Shown: one piece after another, positions 9,743 to 49,452 of the stretch
Position numbering within the stretch: position 1 is the stretch's first letter
Layout of the letters: each line of letters starts with the position of its first letter
Sequence record: OR352948.1
Source: Escherichia phage AV118
Direction: 5' to 3' (one strand)
Length of the DNA: 64,000 bases
The notes under the pieces: generated by a model
Database searches by the model: none
What the model saw: the letters and a program-made list of their open reading frames with translations, nothing else
What the model was told of the DNA's origin: nothing
Program-made: the position numbers and the translations under genes

Positions 9743-10843
9743 TTACGCTGTGAAGATTTTATCCCACATCGCAACAACTGCATCTCGATTATACTTCTTC
9801 CATACTGCTTCAGCACGTTTAACTCGAGCTTCGTATGTGTCAGTGAATTCTAATACAGCTTTTGTGTAAAGCGCAACTACTTCTTTCTTAGGAGTAGAGG
9901 AATCAATTTCTACACGCACAGTATCTGGGTCGTATTCGAATGTCGCATGAGGATAATCCTTAAAAACTAACTGGATTACAGGGACACCTTTAGAGATGGC
10001 TTCAATAGAACTATTCTCTACCGTACCTGTGTCAGGACACGTATTAATAAGTGCTTTAGCTGTTTTAAGACGTTCCATGATTTCACTGTGTGGAGCATCA
10101 ATAATAACAGGATATTTAGCTGGTGGTGCCCATTTACTAGGACAGTATCCTACACCATTTTCGCCTAGTGCTTTAATCGCTTCAAGAGCAACATCAGTAC
10201 GACGCATTTTAGTGTCATAACGTTGGGCACTAATAATCAAATCAGTTGCTGGGAGAACTTCTGGCTTTTCGGTCAAACAAATAACCGGGTAGTCATCATG
10301 TTCAAATAATGGATTTTCACGCCAGTAATCATAATCAATGCTATCAGTAAGAGCTGAAGTCATATGGCAATATTTACGTTCAAATTCACGGAATGCTTTA
10401 GTAGGAGCATAGCTCTTACCACCGTATTTGTGGGTAAGAATAGTTTGTTTCCAAATTTCTACAATACCGCGAGATACAGGCTCAAATGGAGTTGCCATAA
10501 AATTTCTATGAACACTGGATAAACCGGCATCTTTAATTGCGTTAACAGTTAGTTTAGTCGGTTCCATAGTAACAACAAAATCGTATTCATGGATGCCGGC
10601 TAGTTCAACAATCTTACGAGCCATAGTATAACTCATACCTAGACTGAATTTAGTCAGATGACCAACAGGATGATGATTAACTTTCCAGTCACCAAACGTG
10701 TCATTATCAAAGCCGATATAATCAATATCAGCACCGATGGACACAAGATATTTCAACACATTTAAATGTACTGCTTCAAGGCCACCTTGTACACGGTCAG
10801 GATTAAATGGGACTGCACGAGATGGGATAAACATAACTTTCAT
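9743..10843 (-). CDS. GT-B fold glycosyltransferase (GT4-like, 366 aa); candidate DNA hydroxymethylcytosine glycosyltransferase
   Basis: N-terminal MKVMFIPSRAVPFNP..GGLE and C-terminal ENSSIEAISKGVPVI motifs typical of GT-B/GT4 enzymes; AAGG Shine-Dalgarno; sits between rIIA and 39. Confidence 0.6.
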   Translation of the reverse strand: MKVMFIPSRAVPFNPDRVQGGLEAVHLNVLKYLVSIGADIDYIGFDNDTFGDWKVNHHPVGHLTKFSLGMSYTMARKIVELAGIHEYDFVVTMEPTKLTVNAIKDAGLSSVHRNFMATPFEPVSRGIVEIWKQTILTHKYGGKSYAPTKAFREFERKYCHMTSALTDSIDYDYWRENPLFEHDDYPVICLTEKPEVLPATDLIISAQRYDTKMRRTDVALEAIKALGENGVGYCPSKWAPPAKYPVIIDAPHSEIMERLKTAKALINTCPDTGTVENSSIEAISKGVPVIQLVFKDYPHATFEYDPDTVRVEIDSSTPKKEVVALYTKAVLEFTDTYEARVKRAEAVWKKYNRDAVVAMWDKIFTA

Positions 10844-10860
10844 AATTAAGCCTTATTAAA

Positions 10861-10887
10861 ATTAAAATGAAGCTCCCGAAGGAGCTT
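10861..10887 (-). terminator. C(UUCG)G hairpin terminator overlapping stop of the HNH gene
   Basis: Plus aagctcc-cgaa-ggagctt. Confidence 0.45.
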
Positions 10888-11684
10888 AGGACATCCAACA
10901 CATTTTATAACCTTTGCAGGTTCTGTTAGGATTATTTAATGCTTTCAATATATTAGAAGACCCTATATCTAAATACTCCCTTAATTCATAAAGATAGTTA
11001 AAATCAATAGTTTCACCTGTTTTTACACTTGTGATTCTTATAGGCCTTCTTTCATATTTAGATTTATACAACTCTCTAGTCTTAGCTTTAGTTTCTTCTG
11101 ACCTAGGAGTGTATGGTTTAAATCCTTTTGTTTTAAATGTTTCCATTCTTGATTTAGTTATTTTATCCTGGTGTTCTTTTGTTTTTACAGGTGCTTTTCG
11201 CCCATTCTCCCAAGATAACTTGTTGGCCTGTATTATTTTATCTATTGCTTCTTGCGTATGAGTTTTACCATAAAATGGATTTAATTCGCCTATACGTTGT
11301 GAAGCAATATGTGACATTAATTCTCTTGTTGCTTTAGTATGTTTTTTTACCTTTAAATGGATTGCCATTTTTAGCAATCCATTCTTTCATAAATCTAGAG
11401 TGCTCTTTAGAGAATTCTTGTTTAAGCCAATCATAATCTCTAGAATTTCTAGCTCCCATGTAAAAAGCTCTAATAGCCATAAGCATAGAACGGTTCTTAT
11501 GAATTTTATAAAGCAATAAATGGGCGATAAAATGCTCTCTAGGGGTCATTTTAACTAGATTTGATTTAGCATTACTCCCACCCATAGATTTAGGCAAAAT
11601 ATGGTGAGTTTCAGTATAATTAGGAATAGTGCTGCGGTTTTTAGCCGCAGCGATAAGTTTATCATAAATTTTACGATAATTCAT
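10886..11684 (-). pseudogene. HNH homing endonuclease (HNH N-terminal domain + NUMOD3 C-terminal repeats) disrupted by +1 frameshift in an A7 run (plus-strand T-run 11342-11348)
   Basis: ORFs 11334-11684 (HNH motif ETHHILPKSMGGSN...REHFIAH) and 10886-11377 (NPFYGKTH NUMOD3 repeats) are in frames offset by 1; removing one A restores a continuous NPFKGKKHTKATREL reading; ATG at 11684 shares TAATG with gene 39 stop. Confidence 0.55.
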
Positions 11685-13522
11685 TATCCTAGCATCCAAT
11701 CTTTACGGAGTTCAGGGTCGTTACCCATGAGCATTTCAAATAGTTCTTTCCAATTTTCAGGAAGTTTAACTACGTCGTACACAGGGTTTTGAATCATTTC
11801 TTTATATTCATCCCGCTGAAGTGAGCCCAATCCCTTGATGTATCGAATACTATGCTTAGGCAGTGTATCTTTAACTTCTTCATACTCAGCTACAGTATAA
11901 AACCATTTTTGAGTTTTGCCAATTTGTGCAATAATTACAGGCGTTTTAACAAAGCGAATACGTCCTTGTTCAAACAATTCAGGCCAATTACTAAAGAAAG
12001 CAAGCAAAGCCGGATAAATACTTCCAAGGCCGTCATGATCGGCATCGGTCATAATTGCAATATTACGGTAGTTCGTATTCTCTGCCTTTTCACCAAGAAT
12101 AAGACCCGTGATAGCACAGATATCAAAGAGCTCTTTGTTCTTCATCATATCGACATATGACATACCCCAGCTATTCATCACCTTACCACGTAATGGGAAT
12201 CCGCCGTGTAGTTCACGGTCACGAACATCAATGAGATAACCAATTGCCGAATCACCTTCTGTTAAAAACAATGTCGTATCTGCATCTTTACCACATTGGT
12301 TAGCTTTAATATGCTTATGAACCTTAGCTTTAGTTGCCTTTTTAGCTGCTTTAGTTTCTGCAGCCTTTTCTGCTGCCAATTTACGAGCTAATGCGGCTTC
12401 AATTATAGGCATTAAAACTGCTTCAGAATTCAAAATATTTTTTGCCAATTTTTTTGTATCTAATTTAATATGCGTCCGAATTTCGCCATAAGGACTTGTT
12501 AAACGCTCTTTGGTTTGGGAATCAAAACGAAGGTTCTTCATTCCACGAACGAACATTAAGAGAGTGAGACATTCCTTGATGCGCGCTTTAGTCACGTCGA
12601 TTTTATATTTGCGTTTAATAGCCGGAATTAATTCTTCGCAAATGTCGTCCATCACACATTCAATGTGATGACCACCGTTTTTGGTATGGATGTTATTCAC
12701 ATAAGTTAAATGACGGAAGCCATCTGGTGACCGTCCAATGGCAATAGAGCATCCGTCTTGTTCTTGAATGATGGTCTCTTCATCAAATTGTTTAGCAAAC
12801 TTCTTAAAGTTACCTTGAATCTTTTTGCCATTAAATTTAAATTCAATACCAGGATAAACGACCGCCAATGTTTGGAGCCGGTCTATAGTAATATCTTGGT
12901 ATATTTTTTCAAATTGATTCATTTCAAAATGTGAGAAATCAGGAATAAACTCGACCTTAGTACCGTTGTTTTTAGACGGCTTAGATTTCCAAGAAATATT
13001 ATCAGCGTTATTAGAACAATTAACGGTCAATTCATTTTTACCATCTGAAGTAGTGCCAACAAAAGAGACAGAAAAAATATTTGTTAATGAAGAACCGACA
13101 CCGTTTTGTCCACCCGTAACACGTTCTTTGTCGTCACCAAAGTTGCCACCGGCTTTTGTACGTGTCCACGCCGCAACTGGTCCTGGAATTTCTTCTCCTT
13201 CAGGAGTAATAACTGTTTCTTGAGGAATACCTCGACCATTATCTTCAACAGTCACTTTATTAGAATTTAAATCAATACTAACGGAAATTTTATTAGCATA
13301 TTTGAAATTGGTTCGAATAGCTTCGTCTACTGAGTTGTCAATAATTTCATCAATTAATTTGAGAACACCTGCAACATATTTAACCTTTTTAAATTCACCG
13401 AATAGGAAACGTTCTTGTTCTTCATTGGCAACACTTCCAATATACATGCCAGGACGCTTCAAACAATGCTCTTTATCAGATAGCATTTCAATTTTATTAT
13501 CAATCATTAGATTTTCTCTCAA
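11684..13522 (-). CDS. 39: DNA topoisomerase II large subunit gp39 (GyrB-like ATPase + TOPRIM; contiguous 39+60 equivalent, 612 aa)
   Basis: GHKL ATPase and TOPRIM motifs (PGMYIG, EDNGRGIP, LTEGDSA, DADHDG). Confidence 0.9.
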   Translation of the reverse strand: MRENLMIDNKIEMLSDKEHCLKRPGMYIGSVANEEQERFLFGEFKKVKYVAGVLKLIDEIIDNSVDEAIRTNFKYANKISVSIDLNSNKVTVEDNGRGIPQETVITPEGEEIPGPVAAWTRTKAGGNFGDDKERVTGGQNGVGSSLTNIFSVSFVGTTSDGKNELTVNCSNNADNISWKSKPSKNNGTKVEFIPDFSHFEMNQFEKIYQDITIDRLQTLAVVYPGIEFKFNGKKIQGNFKKFAKQFDEETIIQEQDGCSIAIGRSPDGFRHLTYVNNIHTKNGGHHIECVMDDICEELIPAIKRKYKIDVTKARIKECLTLLMFVRGMKNLRFDSQTKERLTSPYGEIRTHIKLDTKKLAKNILNSEAVLMPIIEAALARKLAAEKAAETKAAKKATKAKVHKHIKANQCGKDADTTLFLTEGDSAIGYLIDVRDRELHGGFPLRGKVMNSWGMSYVDMMKNKELFDICAITGLILGEKAENTNYRNIAIMTDADHDGLGSIYPALLAFFSNWPELFEQGRIRFVKTPVIIAQIGKTQKWFYTVAEYEEVKDTLPKHSIRYIKGLGSLQRDEYKEMIQNPVYDVVKLPENWKELFEMLMGNDPELRKDWMLG

Positions 13523-14182
13523 ATTGCATGACTATATTTTTGTATGAACCTTCCGGAAATCCACGTTTAATGCTTTCTTTAGCAAATTTCCCAACCTTTG
13601 GTTTATCCAATTCTAACCATAATTTATATAAAGCAGATTCATATTCCCATACAGGACTTTTACGATTTTTAAGCCCACACTTTATAAGCACTTCCTTTGT
13701 ATGTTTCTTATTATAAAATGGATTGTTTTTGCCACTCATTGCTTTAGAATGTTCCGGGCGCTTAATTCCATACATCGGATTAAGATCGCCTTTCTTGATA
13801 ACGGATTGTAGTTCAATAGTTTCTTCAGAGTGATTGTGTCCATAAAATGGATTTAACTCTTTTGAAACATCCATACCAAAGCACCCATCGACTGTGGCAT
13901 AAGACATGTTGAAAAATTTTTCAGATTTAACCACATTATGCAATTTCTGGTAATACAACTCACAAAACGTCGCTTCTTCCCGTGTATCAAATTCGCCAAT
14001 AATACATGAATCAAATAAATGAGGATTATCTTTTATCTCTTTATCATAAATTTGTTTATATTTTTCGACTTTACCGTACCATGATAGTGATTGTTTGTAT
14101 GTTTATTAAGATAAGTAGACCCTATATAAAACGGTGGCAACTTATCGCCTGTGTATATTGTTAAGTATGTTATGTATTTCAT
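13500..14182 (-). pseudogene. GIY-YIG (Seg-like) homing endonuclease disrupted by -1 frameshift in an A5 run (plus-strand T-run 14061-14065)
   Basis: ATG at 14182 encodes MKYITYLTIYTGDKLPPFYIGST... (near-identical to N-terminus of intact Seg-like gene at 48570-49373) then stops after about 44 codons; downstream frame continues ...KYKQIYDKEIKDNPHLFDSC... into the NUMOD3-repeat ORF 13500-13958; restoring one A rejoins the frames. Confidence 0.55.
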
Positions 14183-19376: not shown

Positions 19377-20123
19377 TTAACCTTTAATCAGTTGGAATAA
19401 TGATGCGCTAAGTGGTAAGCCACGTTTCAATTTTAATTTACCAATGAAACCAATCTTTTCAAAACGTTGCAGACCTTGGATAACTTTATCATATGTATCG
19501 AAAAGCGATTCAGCGTCAGTTAATTTAGTTTTAGTTTTCCAGTCAGAGCCTTTAAGAAGAACGTTGAGTTTAGTAAGTTCATGGCCTTCTGCTTGATGTG
19601 AGCCATTAATGCGTGCTTTCAAAGCAACAATTCTAAGTTTAGACTCATTAGATAAAGGTTGATTTTTCATCATGTTCGCCATATGCTTAACACGGTTTTC
19701 ACGTTTTGCTCGGATTTTTAAAATAGTACCATAAACCTTTTTAATTTGGGCCCATTTCTTCTCGTCGAGATTAAGTTTCTCTACTTTACGAGCAGAAGGA
19801 TTAGCGATACGTCTTGCAATAGCATCACGTTTCTCAATAAGTTCTTCTAATGTTAAATCAGAACGAGCCGTGTTATATTTTTTCTTAACTGGGATAACAT
19901 TACCTTTAATGTAGCCTATATCATTATTAAAACGTTCTAAGGATAATTTCTCACCTTCAACAGAGTTATTAAAAGATTCACCTGAGTAAGCGCAGACCTT
20001 TTGATCAAGAATGTTTTTAAGGTAATTAAAGTCTAAGTTAAAATCCTTAGAGCGTCTCTTCGCAGAAGCTCTGGTGTGGTCAAGACGACGATTGATTTTG
20101 TTAATTTTATTATTTGATAACAT
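19377..20123 (-). CDS. hypothetical basic protein (248 aa); positional analogue of T4 Srd
   Basis: Size/position between dda and modA; GAGGA Shine-Dalgarno. Confidence 0.4.
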   Translation of the reverse strand: MLSNNKINKINRRLDHTRASAKRRSKDFNLDFNYLKNILDQKVCAYSGESFNNSVEGEKLSLERFNNDIGYIKGNVIPVKKKYNTARSDLTLEELIEKRDAIARRIANPSARKVEKLNLDEKKWAQIKKVYGTILKIRAKRENRVKHMANMMKNQPLSNESKLRIVALKARINGSHQAEGHELTKLNVLLKGSDWKTKTKLTDAESLFDTYDKVIQGLQRFEKIGFIGKLKLKRGLPLSASLFQLIKG

Positions 20124-23069: not shown

Positions 23070-23098
23070 CAAAAAAAGGAATCCCGAAGGATTCCTTA
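23070..23098 (-). terminator. Strong intrinsic terminator after soc: 8-bp stem, UUCG loop, U7
   Basis: Plus aaaaaaa-aggaatcc-cgaa-ggattcct. Confidence 0.7.
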
Positions 23099-23372: not shown

Positions 23373-23380
23373 TATTTATA
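23373..23380 (-). promoter_or_regulatory. T4 late promoter TATAAATA upstream of soc
   Basis: Exact TATAAATA on minus strand about 30 nt upstream of soc ATG. Confidence 0.5.
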
Positions 23381-34221: not shown

Positions 34222-35382
34222 TCATTCCGGGTACCTCAAAGCGTCATCAGAGTTAGTTATATCAATAATAGATATAGAGTTTTCTGCTAACCCGTTTTTA
34301 GATAATTGACGTTTATAATATCTTTCACAATATGTACACGTCGTCCCGCAGATTTCATTAGCACAATCGAAATCTGGATGTCTGAACCACCTTTTTTCTA
34401 AAAAGCCATCTAACAAAGAGGTTTCAATATTTACTGTATGTGAAAACTCAGTTTCGTTTTCAAGAGTGAAAATGGTCTCTAAAGGCTTCCACAGTTCTAA
34501 CAAATTACCTTCAAACTTTTCAGAAGCGTATGCTTCAAGAACTTTCAAAATGTAGTCTGTGCTACCTGTACGTCCTGAAACTTTGAATTGAGTGATACCA
34601 ATATCATTATAAAGTTTCAAATCTTGAGGACGAACAAAACGAGTTCTCAACCAGTTAAATGGGTCTGTATCACGAGCTTTAATACAGTGCTGCATAGGAT
34701 ATCCGTTTAAGGATTTAGCATCATCAGCTGTAACATCAGTACTATGGAAAATATAGCAAGAGTCACGATAGCTACAATGTGTTGTATACCCTTTACCAGC
34801 ATTAGAACAGAACTCATTTACAAGAACTTCAAATATTATATTGTTCTTATTGCAAAACTCTGCTGCACGCTTCAGGAAAGAAACTGAACGGTTCTTATGA
34901 ATTCCACAGCAGACCTTTTTGATATTATATTGGTCATGCAAGTATTTGATTTGAGTTACAGCATCGACATGTAGAATTGTTGAAACTTCAATCTCAATGT
35001 CTTTATTGACTTCACGAACAATTTCCATAACAACAGGGTTAGCGATAGTAATACGCCATACGCCTATTGACCAAAGATACTGAACATAATCCTGAATAGC
35101 TTTCTTCTTCCACTCAACTAGTTCTCTTTTTGAACCAGGATTTATCGTGTTGAGTGTATAGTTAAAGCAAATACCTAATTCGTTACAACGTTTAACGTAA
35201 TCTTCTAACATCTTTTTGTCAACGTCAGGAAGCCTAAAATCAGGTCTGGCTGCTACAAAAGCCATTTCTCTTGTAGAGCCGTATACTTCGTTTATCAAGC
35301 TATTAGGATAAGTTTTATTGAGCTCTACGATTTTATCAAGAAGAGCTAAATCAAAATTCGTTCCAATTTTAAAAGTATTCAT
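34222..35382 (-). CDS. Cys-rich enzyme of unknown function (386 aa from ATG at 35382; ORF track GTG start 35397), possible Fe-S / U32-peptidase-like TIM-barrel protein
   Basis: C-terminal CxxxCxxC (CGTTCTYC) plus further Cys pairs; N-terminal VYGS...ARPDF...ELGI.F.YTLNT pattern reminiscent of U32 family. Confidence 0.45.
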   Translation of the reverse strand: MNTFKIGTNFDLALLDKIVELNKTYPNSLINEVYGSTREMAFVAARPDFRLPDVDKKMLEDYVKRCNELGICFNYTLNTINPGSKRELVEWKKKAIQDYVQYLWSIGVWRITIANPVVMEIVREVNKDIEIEVSTILHVDAVTQIKYLHDQYNIKKVCCGIHKNRSVSFLKRAAEFCNKNNIIFEVLVNEFCSNAGKGYTTHCSYRDSCYIFHSTDVTADDAKSLNGYPMQHCIKARDTDPFNWLRTRFVRPQDLKLYNDIGITQFKVSGRTGSTDYILKVLEAYASEKFEGNLLELWKPLETIFTLENETEFSHTVNIETSLLDGFLEKRWFRHPDFDCANEICGTTCTYCERYYKRQLSKNGLAENSISIIDITNSDDALRYPE

Positions 35383-43134: not shown

Positions 43135-43821
43135 TTAGAAGTCGTGAGTAGAATCGGCTTCCATCGCAATAACATAACTTACTTGAGAGCTTTCAAACTT
43201 GGCTGCAACTTTATCACCAGCTCCCCACAACATTACTTTATAGTTACCTGGCTGGATTTTCATATTAGCCATATTGATTACGAAGTTAAAGTTGTTAGAA
43301 CCATCATAATCGGTAAGAGTCAAAGAATACTTAGGACGAGTTAGTCCTGAATCTTCAACTTTATTATAGCCATTGATAACAATTTTACCATCTTTATTTG
43401 TAATAGCAATTGTATCAATCTGAAGACCACGTGAAACTCGAAGCAATTGTTGAAGGTCTTCAGCTTTAATTTCAGTAATCACAGAAGCTACTGGGAATTG
43501 AATTGGCTTATTAGGAAAAACAATTGTGCTCTTGTCAGCGGCAGGCCAATAAACTGTGGAACGTGTATCTGCAATTTTAATATTGCCATCAGTGTGCATT
43601 GAAATTTCAGCATCATCAGACACTAGACTCAAAATGCTTAAGAAGCTATTCAAATCATAAAGTGCTACGTCAAAATCAATTTCATCAGAGATATTTGCTT
43701 CCGCATAAGTGGTGCCATTAACTGCACGAGTCATAATAAATTTACCTTGACTCAGCAGAATGCCAGAGTTAATAGAAGCGAAGTTTTTCAGAATATTTAC
43801 GGTTTCACGGCTAAGTTTCAT
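43135..43821 (-). CDS. 45: Sliding clamp gp45 (228 aa)
   Basis: Size identical to T4 gp45; MKLS...NFASINSGILL N-terminus. Confidence 0.85.
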   Translation of the reverse strand: MKLSRETVNILKNFASINSGILLSQGKFIMTRAVNGTTYAEANISDEIDFDVALYDLNSFLSILSLVSDDAEISMHTDGNIKIADTRSTVYWPAADKSTIVFPNKPIQFPVASVITEIKAEDLQQLLRVSRGLQIDTIAITNKDGKIVINGYNKVEDSGLTRPKYSLTLTDYDGSNNFNFVINMANMKIQPGNYKVMLWGAGDKVAAKFESSQVSYVIAMEADSTHDF

Positions 43822-44708
43822 TTAGGTTTCCTATTAGCATAATAATTTGTCCAAGACCGGATAGCACCTTGGTATGATTCATCATTAAAACCATGCTGAA
43901 TTGCATGTTTTCTAAATGTAATATAACTTGGTTTTCCTAAAGCAATCCACAATTCCTTTAATTTTTGTTCATGAAATATCCATGTACCTCTAGCTTTAGA
44001 TTTTCTGAATTTATCCTTAAATTCTTTGGTTGCATTTCTTTTCGAAGCTGCGATAGAGGCCTTTGCTCTATTTTCAGGTTTAGACCAATACAATGTTTTA
44101 GATATTTTTATTTTATCTTTAACATTAGGAGAATTCATTATATCTTTAAATTTTAAAGCAAAATCTCTATCGCTAAACATTTTTTTAGAAAGAATAGAAA
44201 CTTTCTCTCTTCGTTCTTTGGTCCAATATGTTTTTTGAAATTCTCTAATTGCGTTTAAATGATTCTCCGACAATTTGCAATTTTTTCTAACACCGACGTA
44301 ATCTTCGTTTATTTCGTTTTTAGAAAGTTTTACTATTTTGCCTGTTTTTAAATTTTTATACGGTGCATATCCTTTAGCTGATATTCTAGACTTCTCGTTA
44401 GCATAAGCCTTATTAAAATATTTTTCATTTGAAACGGCTTTAACATTGAGTTGGAATAGTCTTTCTATTCTTCTAGGGTCTAATGTGGTTTCGCCTAAAA
44501 TTTTTACAGAATATTCGCCTTGGTCTATTAATCTGGTATATAAAGGAGAATACGAGGAATTAACACTACCGGTATATATTTTACCGGTAGAATCTTCAAT
44601 AATATCCTTTCCATTAAAATGACACGAAACTTTAGAACCTATATAATAACACGGGTATTCATTTTTAATCTCACGATTATAAAAGGTTATAAGATATATT
44701 AAATTCAT
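43818..44708 (-). CDS. GIY-YIG (Seg-like) homing endonuclease (296 aa from ATG at 44708)
   Basis: N-terminal LIYLITFYN...YYIGSK GIY-YIG motif; basic C-terminal DNA-binding region; inserted between rpbA and 45; weak Shine-Dalgarno. Confidence 0.55.
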   Translation of the reverse strand: MNLIYLITFYNREIKNEYPCYYIGSKVSCHFNGKDIIEDSTGKIYTGSVNSSYSPLYTRLIDQGEYSVKILGETTLDPRRIERLFQLNVKAVSNEKYFNKAYANEKSRISAKGYAPYKNLKTGKIVKLSKNEINEDYVGVRKNCKLSENHLNAIREFQKTYWTKERREKVSILSKKMFSDRDFALKFKDIMNSPNVKDKIKISKTLYWSKPENRAKASIAASKRNATKEFKDKFRKSKARGTWIFHEQKLKELWIALGKPSYITFRKHAIQHGFNDESYQGAIRSWTNYYANRKPK

Positions 44709-44713
44709 AATTA

Positions 44714-45130
44714 TCAAGCAGCAACCATCTGCTTTTTAATAGTTTCAGGCAGTGATTCAATATATTCTGGAATTTTAGAAGCAACAATTTCGCCAGCTGC
44801 AATTAGTTGTTCGTCGGCATCAACACAGTAGGAATCTTCCAGACGCTCAGAACCGTCTTTATCAAGAACGATTTTTGCGCCAGCTTCAATAGAATCGTTA
44901 TAGTGCTTACGCATCAGATGAATCCACATATCAGATACATCGTTATCAATAAAACCATAAATCATAAAACGAGTTTCTTGTGGCAAAGATTGGAGTTTTT
45001 TAGCACTTGCGTCATCACAATGCAGGACCCATGCTTTACGAACACGATTATGGTTATGTGGGTTAGCGTCAGTACGGATAGAAGTAACTTTCAGATCAGC
45101 AGCAGTGAAACCTTTAGCAGTAGTAAACAT
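44714..45130 (-). CDS. RpbA-like RNA polymerase binding protein (138 aa)
   Basis: Position between 46 and 45 as in T4; size near T4 RpbA. Confidence 0.45.
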   Translation of the reverse strand: MFTTAKGFTAADLKVTSIRTDANPHNHNRVRKAWVLHCDDASAKKLQSLPQETRFMIYGFIDNDVSDMWIHLMRKHYNDSIEAGAKIVLDKDGSERLEDSYCVDADEQLIAAGEIVASKIPEYIESLPETIKKQMVAA

Positions 45131-49427: not shown

Positions 49428-49452
49428 AAAAAAAGGAAGCACTAGGCTTCCT
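49428..49452. terminator. Bidirectional hairpin terminator (aggaagc-actag-gcttcct) flanked by A7 and T4 runs
   Basis: Read directly. Confidence 0.45.

Follow-up and report, generated by a model that had tools for sequence, protein, structure and literature searches.

A single-base frameshift, probably from recent slippage, splits a Mob-type homing endonuclease gene at the 3′ end of gene 39 in Escherichia phage AV118

Downstream of gene 39 in Escherichia phage AV118, a Mosigvirus from pig waste in Denmark with a genome of 169,872 bp, the coding sequence of a homing endonuclease is divided between two reading frames that meet at a run of A residues. Does this split reflect a gene that has begun to decay, an error of sequencing, or a mode of expression that depends on slippage at the run? 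An earlier, sequence-only reading had put forward all three, and here we ask which best accounts for the locus within a window of 64,000 nt (the whole stretch of record OR352948.1 that was analysed, whose coordinates are used throughout).

The frameshifted homing endonuclease gene (HEG) occupies 10886–11684 on the minus strand and spans 799 nt, one more than the 798 nt (265 codons) of the intact form. Its first ORF (11334–11684, minus strand) starts with the ATG at 11684, reads MNYRKIYDKL...NGNPFKGKKTY* and ends after 116 aa at a premature TAA (11334–11336); it contains the HNH (ββα-Me) motif at 11520–11618 on the minus strand (residues 23–55, YTETHHILPKSMGGSNAKSNLVKMTPREHFIAH). The additional base lies in an A7 run at 11342–11348 (minus strand; T7 on the plus strand). 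In intact orthologues this run is A6 and encodes the Lys-Lys (AAA AAA) of the first NUMOD3-like unit, NPFKGKKHT, and the frameshift therefore falls inside this unit, between the nuclease half and the DNA-binding half. The C-terminal part, with the NUMOD3 repeats and the C-terminal DNA-binding region, continues in the +1 frame at 10886–11341 (minus strand; from 11684 to 11341 there are 343 = 3 × 114 + 1 nt) and ends at the TAA at 10886–10888; an internal ATG at 11317–11319 gives it a 143-aa product. Deletion of one A from the A7 run restores, as had been claimed, a continuous frame, ...NPFKGKKHTKATREL..., whose product matches that of the uninterrupted 265-aa ORF in phages AV115 and AV109 at 100% identity; the repaired reading with one A fewer is also given as ...NPFKGKKHTKATRELMSHIASQ..., equal to the 265-aa AV115/AV109 'homing endonuclease'. 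At the nucleotide level the AV118 gene has 0 SNPs relative to the A6 copies of AV115 and AV109 and differs from them in run length only. By this alignment, the likeness of the split ORFs to intact orthologues is a direct match and no chance resemblance. ORFs, coordinates and orthologue identity thus confirm the earlier description: an HNH HEG follows gene 39, and a +1 frameshift in an A7 run splits it. In GenBank the two pieces are annotated separately, as a 116-aa 'homing endonuclease' (WPK36056.1) and a 143-aa 'hypothetical protein' (WPK36055.1).

Upstream of the HEG, gene 39 (11684–13507, minus strand) encodes the large subunit of topoisomerase II in its full-length, fused 39+60 form, with 607 aa from its ATG and with GyrB, HATPase and Toprim domains (Pfam). 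Its TAA (11684–11686) overlaps the ATG of the HEG in the sequence TAATG. We searched the window for the T4 late-promoter motif TATAAATA and found a sole site at 23373, far from the HEG; the HEG thus lacks its own late promoter, and its translation may be coupled to that of gene 39 through the TAATG overlap.

Several lines of evidence assign the gene to a family. It matches PHROG 655, 'homing endonuclease' (E = 1.3e-55), and in tblastn searches it resembles RB5 mobD (35.6% identity over 186 aa, E = 6e-17) and VR5 mobE (58.5% over 62 aa), while the T4 mobA pseudogene is 53% identical to its first 45 residues. Three Pfam HNH models overlap at residues 22–44, with single-sequence scores below their curated cut-offs (16–17 bits against 21–27), and a single-sequence search of the PDB gave a marginal match to McrA (E = 0.38); a profile search took its place. 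Across 42 aligned homologues from the databases, N42, H51 and H55 never vary and H27/H28 are at least 90% conserved, and the profile built from this alignment matches the HNH domains of 6ME0 (3.5e-5), 6GHC (6.1e-5) and 8YDB (1.9e-4), which belong to a group II intron maturase (6ME0), McrA (6GHC) and Cas8f-HNH. The same profile matches the DNA-binding domain of I-TevI (1I3J, E = 2.5e-5). Pfam NUMOD3 was found on the C-terminal ORF of the window (E = 1.6e-8) and, in a separate search, over two stretches (E = 4.6e-9); TIGR01453 gives a sub-threshold match to the NUMOD3 units. The predicted HNH and NUMOD homology is thus recovered by profile searches.

Taken together, the PHROG 655 match, the similarity to mobD, mobE and mobA, and the profile matches to HNH domains and I-TevI identify the product, as judged from its sequence, as a Mob-type free-standing HNH + NUMOD3 homing endonuclease. 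It has the Mob-type layout, with an HNH nuclease at the N-terminus joined to a distinct DNA-binding region at the C-terminus. T4 MobD and MobE share this order of domains and are also free-standing between conserved genes, and for MobE, too, translational coupling to the gene upstream has been discussed (PMC2988022); insertion site and presumed target differ, however, being the 3′ end of gene 39 for the AV118 enzyme and nrdB/nrdA for MobE. With I-TevI the AV118 protein shares NUMOD3 units that match the DNA-binding domain 1I3J and the joining of a nuclease to extended DNA-binding units, but the nuclease of I-TevI is of the GIY-YIG type and its gene lies in an intron, in contrast to the free-standing HNH enzyme described here.

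The distribution of the gene is that of a mobile element. It is held by 27 phage records at 98.6% identity or more, on both Mosigvirus and Tequatrovirus backbones, and in both it is found at more than 99% identity. In many other Mosigviruses only the flanks are matched (21% coverage) and there is no HEG; in JM10 and HX01, gene 39 is directly followed by a 366-aa gene with no HEG between them. The gene is thus polymorphic for presence among close relatives, free-standing between conserved genes and bounded by a defined junction. Against JM10, this junction delimits a cassette of about 795 nt (10898–11692), flanked by two copies of the 6-nt sequence CATCCA, on the left at 10892–10897 (TGGATG, or Trp-Met, on the coding strand) and on the right at 11693–11698. 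Where the HEG is absent, gene 39 contains ...TGGATGTCCTAA... at its 3′ end, and gp39 of JM10 ends in ...KEWMS*; in the window, gp39 ends in ...DWMLG* and the HEG in ...CWMS*. The last codons of the HEG, WMS*, are by this comparison the original gene 39 end of HEG-less phages, and the repeat copies together with the compared ends place the cassette in the last codons of gene 39. It lies upstream of a terminator-like hairpin (AAGCTCC-TTCG-GGAGCTT with a U-rich tail; 10870–10887, minus strand) that overlaps the HEG stop codon and that is found, identical, directly after gene 39 in HEG-less phages. The annotation of fPS-90 has a 'terminator' feature at the position of this hairpin, in a flank common to JM10.

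This position invites comparison with T4 mobA, the analogy drawn in the sequence-only reading, and the analogy holds. MobA is also of the HNH family; its start overlaps the 3′ end of gene 39, it apparently has no promoter of its own, and in T4 it is a pseudogene frameshifted just after the HNH core that is intact and active in relatives (PMC2988022; bioRxiv 10.1101/2022.08.31.505936). Both phages have a frameshifted HNH gene beside gene 39. The two loci differ in gene 39 itself: mobA interrupts the topoisomerase gene, so that 39 and 60 are separate, and is accompanied by a 50-nt bypass cassette, whereas the AV118 HEG lies in the last two codons of a full-length, unsplit gene 39 and has no bypass element. 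In addition, the C-terminal halves of the two proteins are unrelated at the level tested, and T4 mobA is heavily decayed, in contrast to the single lesion in AV118.

Having defined the gene, we turned to the status of the A7 run. All 27 phage records are shorter than the window here, by 1 nt or, in one record, by 2 nt, and those whose annotation was read have one 798-nt CDS each. The run lengths of orthologues had been proposed as the informative comparison; all copies examined directly are A6, except that of phage ECO111 5-P, which is A5. Because the AV118 gene is otherwise identical to the AV115 and AV109 copies, the change to A7 is private and very recent.

A single base in a homopolymer, set against A6 in all near-identical relatives, is also what a sequencing or assembly error would produce; true AV118 would then have A6 in this gene and in a second HEG whose reading is likewise broken, and both genes would be intact. 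This second free-standing HEG lies upstream of gene 39 (13500–14182, minus strand), combines a Seg-like N-terminus with three NUMOD3 units and has 227 aa when intact. In AV118 it is frameshifted by a 1-nt deletion in an A6 run, leaving A5 at 14061–14065 (minus strand; T5 on the plus strand); this is unique to AV118, as the run is A6 in AV109, AV114, AV115, AV116, JM10, HX01, G2285 and CEV1. WPK36058 is a fragment of this gene. Pfam GIY-YIG matches it with E = 0.84 only, and the name 'Seg-like' is therefore given on motif and PHROG grounds only; in HX01, RefSeq calls the gene 'HNH endonuclease'.

A mixed lysate or a consensus-calling artefact could, in principle, account for two frameshifted HEGs in a single assembly. 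Illumina MiSeq makes few errors at runs of 6–7 nt. We compared the homopolymers of the window with those of AV115 over 57 kb and polarised the differences with AV109, JM10 and HX01. This stretch contains 270 A/T runs of at least 5 and 54 of at least 6, and only two indels are specific to the window; both are frameshifting, there is one in each of the HEGs that flank gene 39, and each lies in the only A6 run of its HEG. The remaining homopolymer differences either belong to AV115 alone or fall in intergenic runs that vary, and no homopolymer indel is present in the flanking essential genes. Private indels confined to two dispensable HEGs argue for mutation filtered by selection, as random error would rarely choose both. 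A general homopolymer error in assemblies of the AV collection was considered, as AV115 has a split srd gene and a split Seg-like gene, but was rejected for AV118 on the same distribution. The AV collection was sequenced by Illumina MiSeq 2×250 from Nextera XT libraries and assembled with CLC (PMC10844046), not a homopolymer-prone platform. The tract is, moreover, A7 or A5 in independent sequencing runs whose flanking genes carry no homopolymer indels. An error in both HEGs is accordingly an unlikely account of the split, and the best reading of the A7, as assembled, is that it represents a real and recent mutation.

Independent data sets show how variable the tract is. In a Logan assembly of SRR25936345, the run is A7 in a Tequatrovirus setting, on a haplotype that differs by 3 SNPs; A5 alleles come from phage ECO111 5-P and from no fewer than 12 contigs belonging to several SRA series. 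We grouped 48 fetched loci (some contigs were fetched twice) by haplotype after normalising run length, which gave 13 haplotypes; four of these were found both as A6 and as A5 or A7, and two more were seen only in frameshifted form, so that frameshift alleles occur on six haplotype backgrounds. When the run is reset to A6, 13 of the 13 haplotypes have an intact 265-codon ORF, and no second lesion was found in frameshift alleles on any of the six backgrounds. A5 and A6 copies of one haplotype also occur within the same SRA series. In the 2–3.7 kb flanks of the variant metagenome contigs there is no other homopolymer indel, and gene 39 and rIIA are intact; these clean flanks again argue against platform error. 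A scan of viral, metagenome and genome contig collections with the pattern CCATTTAAAGGTN{3,10}CATACTAAAGCAACAAG yielded two more copies, both A6, and these, being only two, add nothing on allele frequency.

Variable sites across the haplotypes comprise 17 synonymous and 6 non-synonymous changes. The HEG family is thus otherwise under purifying selection, and the frameshift alleles are young descendants of a functional gene. About a fifth of the sampled contigs (~20%) are frameshifted and none of these has a second lesion, somewhat more than simple one-way decay would lead one to expect. It is most parsimonious to assume that each A5 or A7 allele arose independently, although one mutation could also have been carried between haplotypes by short-patch recombination.

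A reversible switch, with A6 competent for drive and A5 and A7 silent, would leave this pattern as well: frameshift alleles on six haplotypes, of which four also exist as an identical A6 copy, no second lesion in any of them, and A5 and A6 side by side in one SRA series. Such a switch may hold the HEG silent and harmless to the phage and re-arm it by reversion when HEG-less targets appear. Alternatively, the two ORFs may form a split enzyme of nuclease and DNA-binding subunits that serves in target protection, in repression or as a two-piece nuclease. The arrangement of the ORFs could accommodate this: in the A5 allele, in which the nuclease ORF has 121 aa (116 aa in A7), the stop of the first ORF and the start of the second are joined in TAATG, with one base shared between the adjacent genes, and in the A7 allele 14 nt separate the stop from a downstream ATG that has a weak GAG in front of it. 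For a contingency locus, however, six A residues make a short tract, and intergenic homopolymers in these phages vary as freely, so that neutral slippage explains the pattern equally well. We consider both the switch and the split enzyme very unlikely.

The third proposal, expression by slippage, would make A7 the functional, low-expression state that keeps a toxic nuclease scarce, a 'savior indel'. Full-length protein would then arise by transcriptional loss of one A or by a +1 ribosomal slip of tRNA-Lys on AAA-AAA-A, for which A7 permits perfect re-pairing of tRNA-Lys in the +1 frame; an SD-like AAGG (4 nt) lies just upstream of the run. ACA, the codon in the A-site, is no stop and is not a rare codon in E. 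coli. A downstream RNA fold was considered as a stimulator of frameshifting, over 131 nt from the shift site, and rejected (weak hairpin about 30 nt downstream, z = −2.0). There are precedents for the general idea, as T4 HEG expression is kept low by several means (PMC2988022) and compensatory low-level frameshifting on short homopolymers has been documented for herpesvirus thymidine kinase (PMC5009743). Efficient bacterial transcriptional slippage, however, has been described for runs of 9 A/T (PMC5009743), against which A7 is short. The shift site is also unconserved: most copies are A6 and in frame, and A5 copies need the opposite correction and offer no good slippery re-pairing. A designed, slippage-dependent mode of expression is thus unsupported, and we consider it, by either route, very unlikely.

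The reading that we favour, and hold to be probable, is that AV118 carries a recent Streisinger-type slippage mutation in a free-standing HEG inserted in the end of gene 39, which has probably inactivated it. The intact gene would produce a 265-aa protein with an N-terminal HNH domain, I-TevI-like NUMOD3 units and a C-terminal DNA-binding region; this enzyme would cut or nick gene 39 close to its 3′ end in alleles that lack the HEG, and recombinational repair would copy the HEG into the cut allele. In AV118, we infer, replication slippage turned A6 into A7 in the only A6 run of the HEG and shifted the frame inside the first NUMOD3 unit, and the main product of this allele would be the 116-aa nuclease domain without the DNA-binding half. 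With this half lost from the main product, the A7 allele most likely no longer works as a homing endonuclease. Both pieces, of 116 and 143 aa, might still be produced and keep some function, and slippage of RNA polymerase or the ribosome on A7 may yield a trace of the full-length protein; such slippage would be adventitious and not programmed. Because the HEG is dispensable to the phage, frameshift alleles are tolerated, and the same tract appears to have changed length repeatedly in nature, among A5, A6 and A7.

Slippage at A-runs is the classical Streisinger type of hot spot in T-even phages, and such frameshift hot spots occur at A-runs in the rII and e genes of T4. The AV118 HEG appears to be an instance both of these hot spots and of the Goddard-Burt life cycle, from which it differs in nothing essential. 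In that life cycle, selective support is lost once no empty sites remain, and the frameshift described here would represent the first step of the homing-endonuclease degeneration cycle as summarised for T4-type phages (PMC2988022). The frame is disrupted relative to intact orthologues, yet there is a single lesion and no relaxed constraint, which places the gene, on its sequence, at a very early stage of decay and not among old pseudogenes. Of the possibilities raised at the outset, the decaying HEG is favoured, since the lesion is specific to AV118 and the orthologues have A6 and an unbroken 265-aa ORF.

These results have consequences for annotation: WPK36056 and WPK36055 are halves of one Mob-type HEG, and annotation as a frameshifted gene is warranted. 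Beyond annotation the finding matters little, as this route of decay is common and already well understood for dispensable genes; the recurrent frameshifting at one tract without secondary lesions is mildly notable. As a natural example, the locus shows cleanly how HEG decay begins, with a single slippage in the only A6 run of the gene, and the Lys-Lys homopolymer runs within NUMOD3 motifs are a built-in weak point of HEGs in AT-rich phages. Where haplotypes are otherwise identical, the A5/A6/A7 polymorphism could be used to mark HEG turnover in T-even populations.

The main homing endonuclease gene (HEG; Mob-type HNH plus NUMOD3, 10886-11684, minus strand) lies 3′ of gene 39, which encodes the topoisomerase II large subunit, and a 6-nt direct repeat, CATCCA, stands on both sides of its cassette (10892-10897 and 11693-11698). 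Upon insertion the C-terminus of the gene 39 product (gp39) changed from ...WMS* to ...WMLG*, and the old WMS* codons are now reused by the HEG together with the terminator hairpin. Identity to JM10, a related phage without this HEG, is 85.7% in the junction-side part of gene 39 versus 98.7% across the opposite flank; the lower identity beside the junction may reflect co-conversion or target-site immunity. A gene for a 366-aa protein (9743-10843, minus strand; PHROG 8302, unknown function) holds the position at which T4 has the gene 60/rIIA.1 neighbours. A Pfam search with this protein returned no match, and its names differ by relative: ‘putative hmC-arabinosyltransferase’, ‘glycosyltransferase’ and ‘DNA alpha-glucosyltransferase’.

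The frameshifting A7 allele of the main HEG is also carried, on a haplotype that differs from that of the window, by a Tequatrovirus-type contig (Logan SRR25936345 contig 6150) with a 725-aa rIIA and rIIA.1 adjacent. Directly upstream of gene 39, overlapping its start by 8 nt, is a second free-standing HEG (13500-14182, minus strand), with a Seg/GIY-YIG-like N-terminus that matches Pfam GIY-YIG at only E=0.84, three NUMOD3 units, and matches to PHROGs 10820 and 314. Its product is 227 aa long in AV109, AV114-AV116, JM10, HX01, G2285 and CEV1, eight phage genomes in all; AV118 alone has an A6-to-A5 deletion, in the run at 14061-14065, that splits it.

Homopolymer changes occur elsewhere in these genomes. 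A 299-aa Seg-like ORF (LIYLITF...CYYIGSK; 43818-44717, minus strand) between gene 45 and rpbA is unbroken in the window and AV109 and missing in JM10 and HX01; the AV115 copy, split by expansion of a T7 run (window ~44180) to T11, is a further HEG-like gene disrupted at a homopolymer. The gene for the 248-aa anti-sigma factor Srd (19377-20123, minus strand; run near 19878) is unbroken in the window, AV109, JM10 and HX01, and is annotated in two pieces in AV115 because of a private T6-to-T5 change. Among five close relatives, intergenic A/T runs vary freely in length: A7/A8/A11 at 23071, T6/T7/T8 at 35382 and A7/A9 at 49428. GC-rich hairpins that look like terminators, GGAATCCCGAAGGATTCC and GGAAGCACTAGGCTTCC, immediately follow two of these three runs.

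Over both HEGs and gene 39 (window ~10200-14100), SNPs relative to AV115 and AV109 fall to 0-6 per 500 bp; some flanking stretches (6-9 kb against both phages, 14-18 kb mainly against AV109) have 10-59 over the same length. This low-SNP stretch is consistent with a recently shared segment, possibly one whose spread was driven by a HEG.
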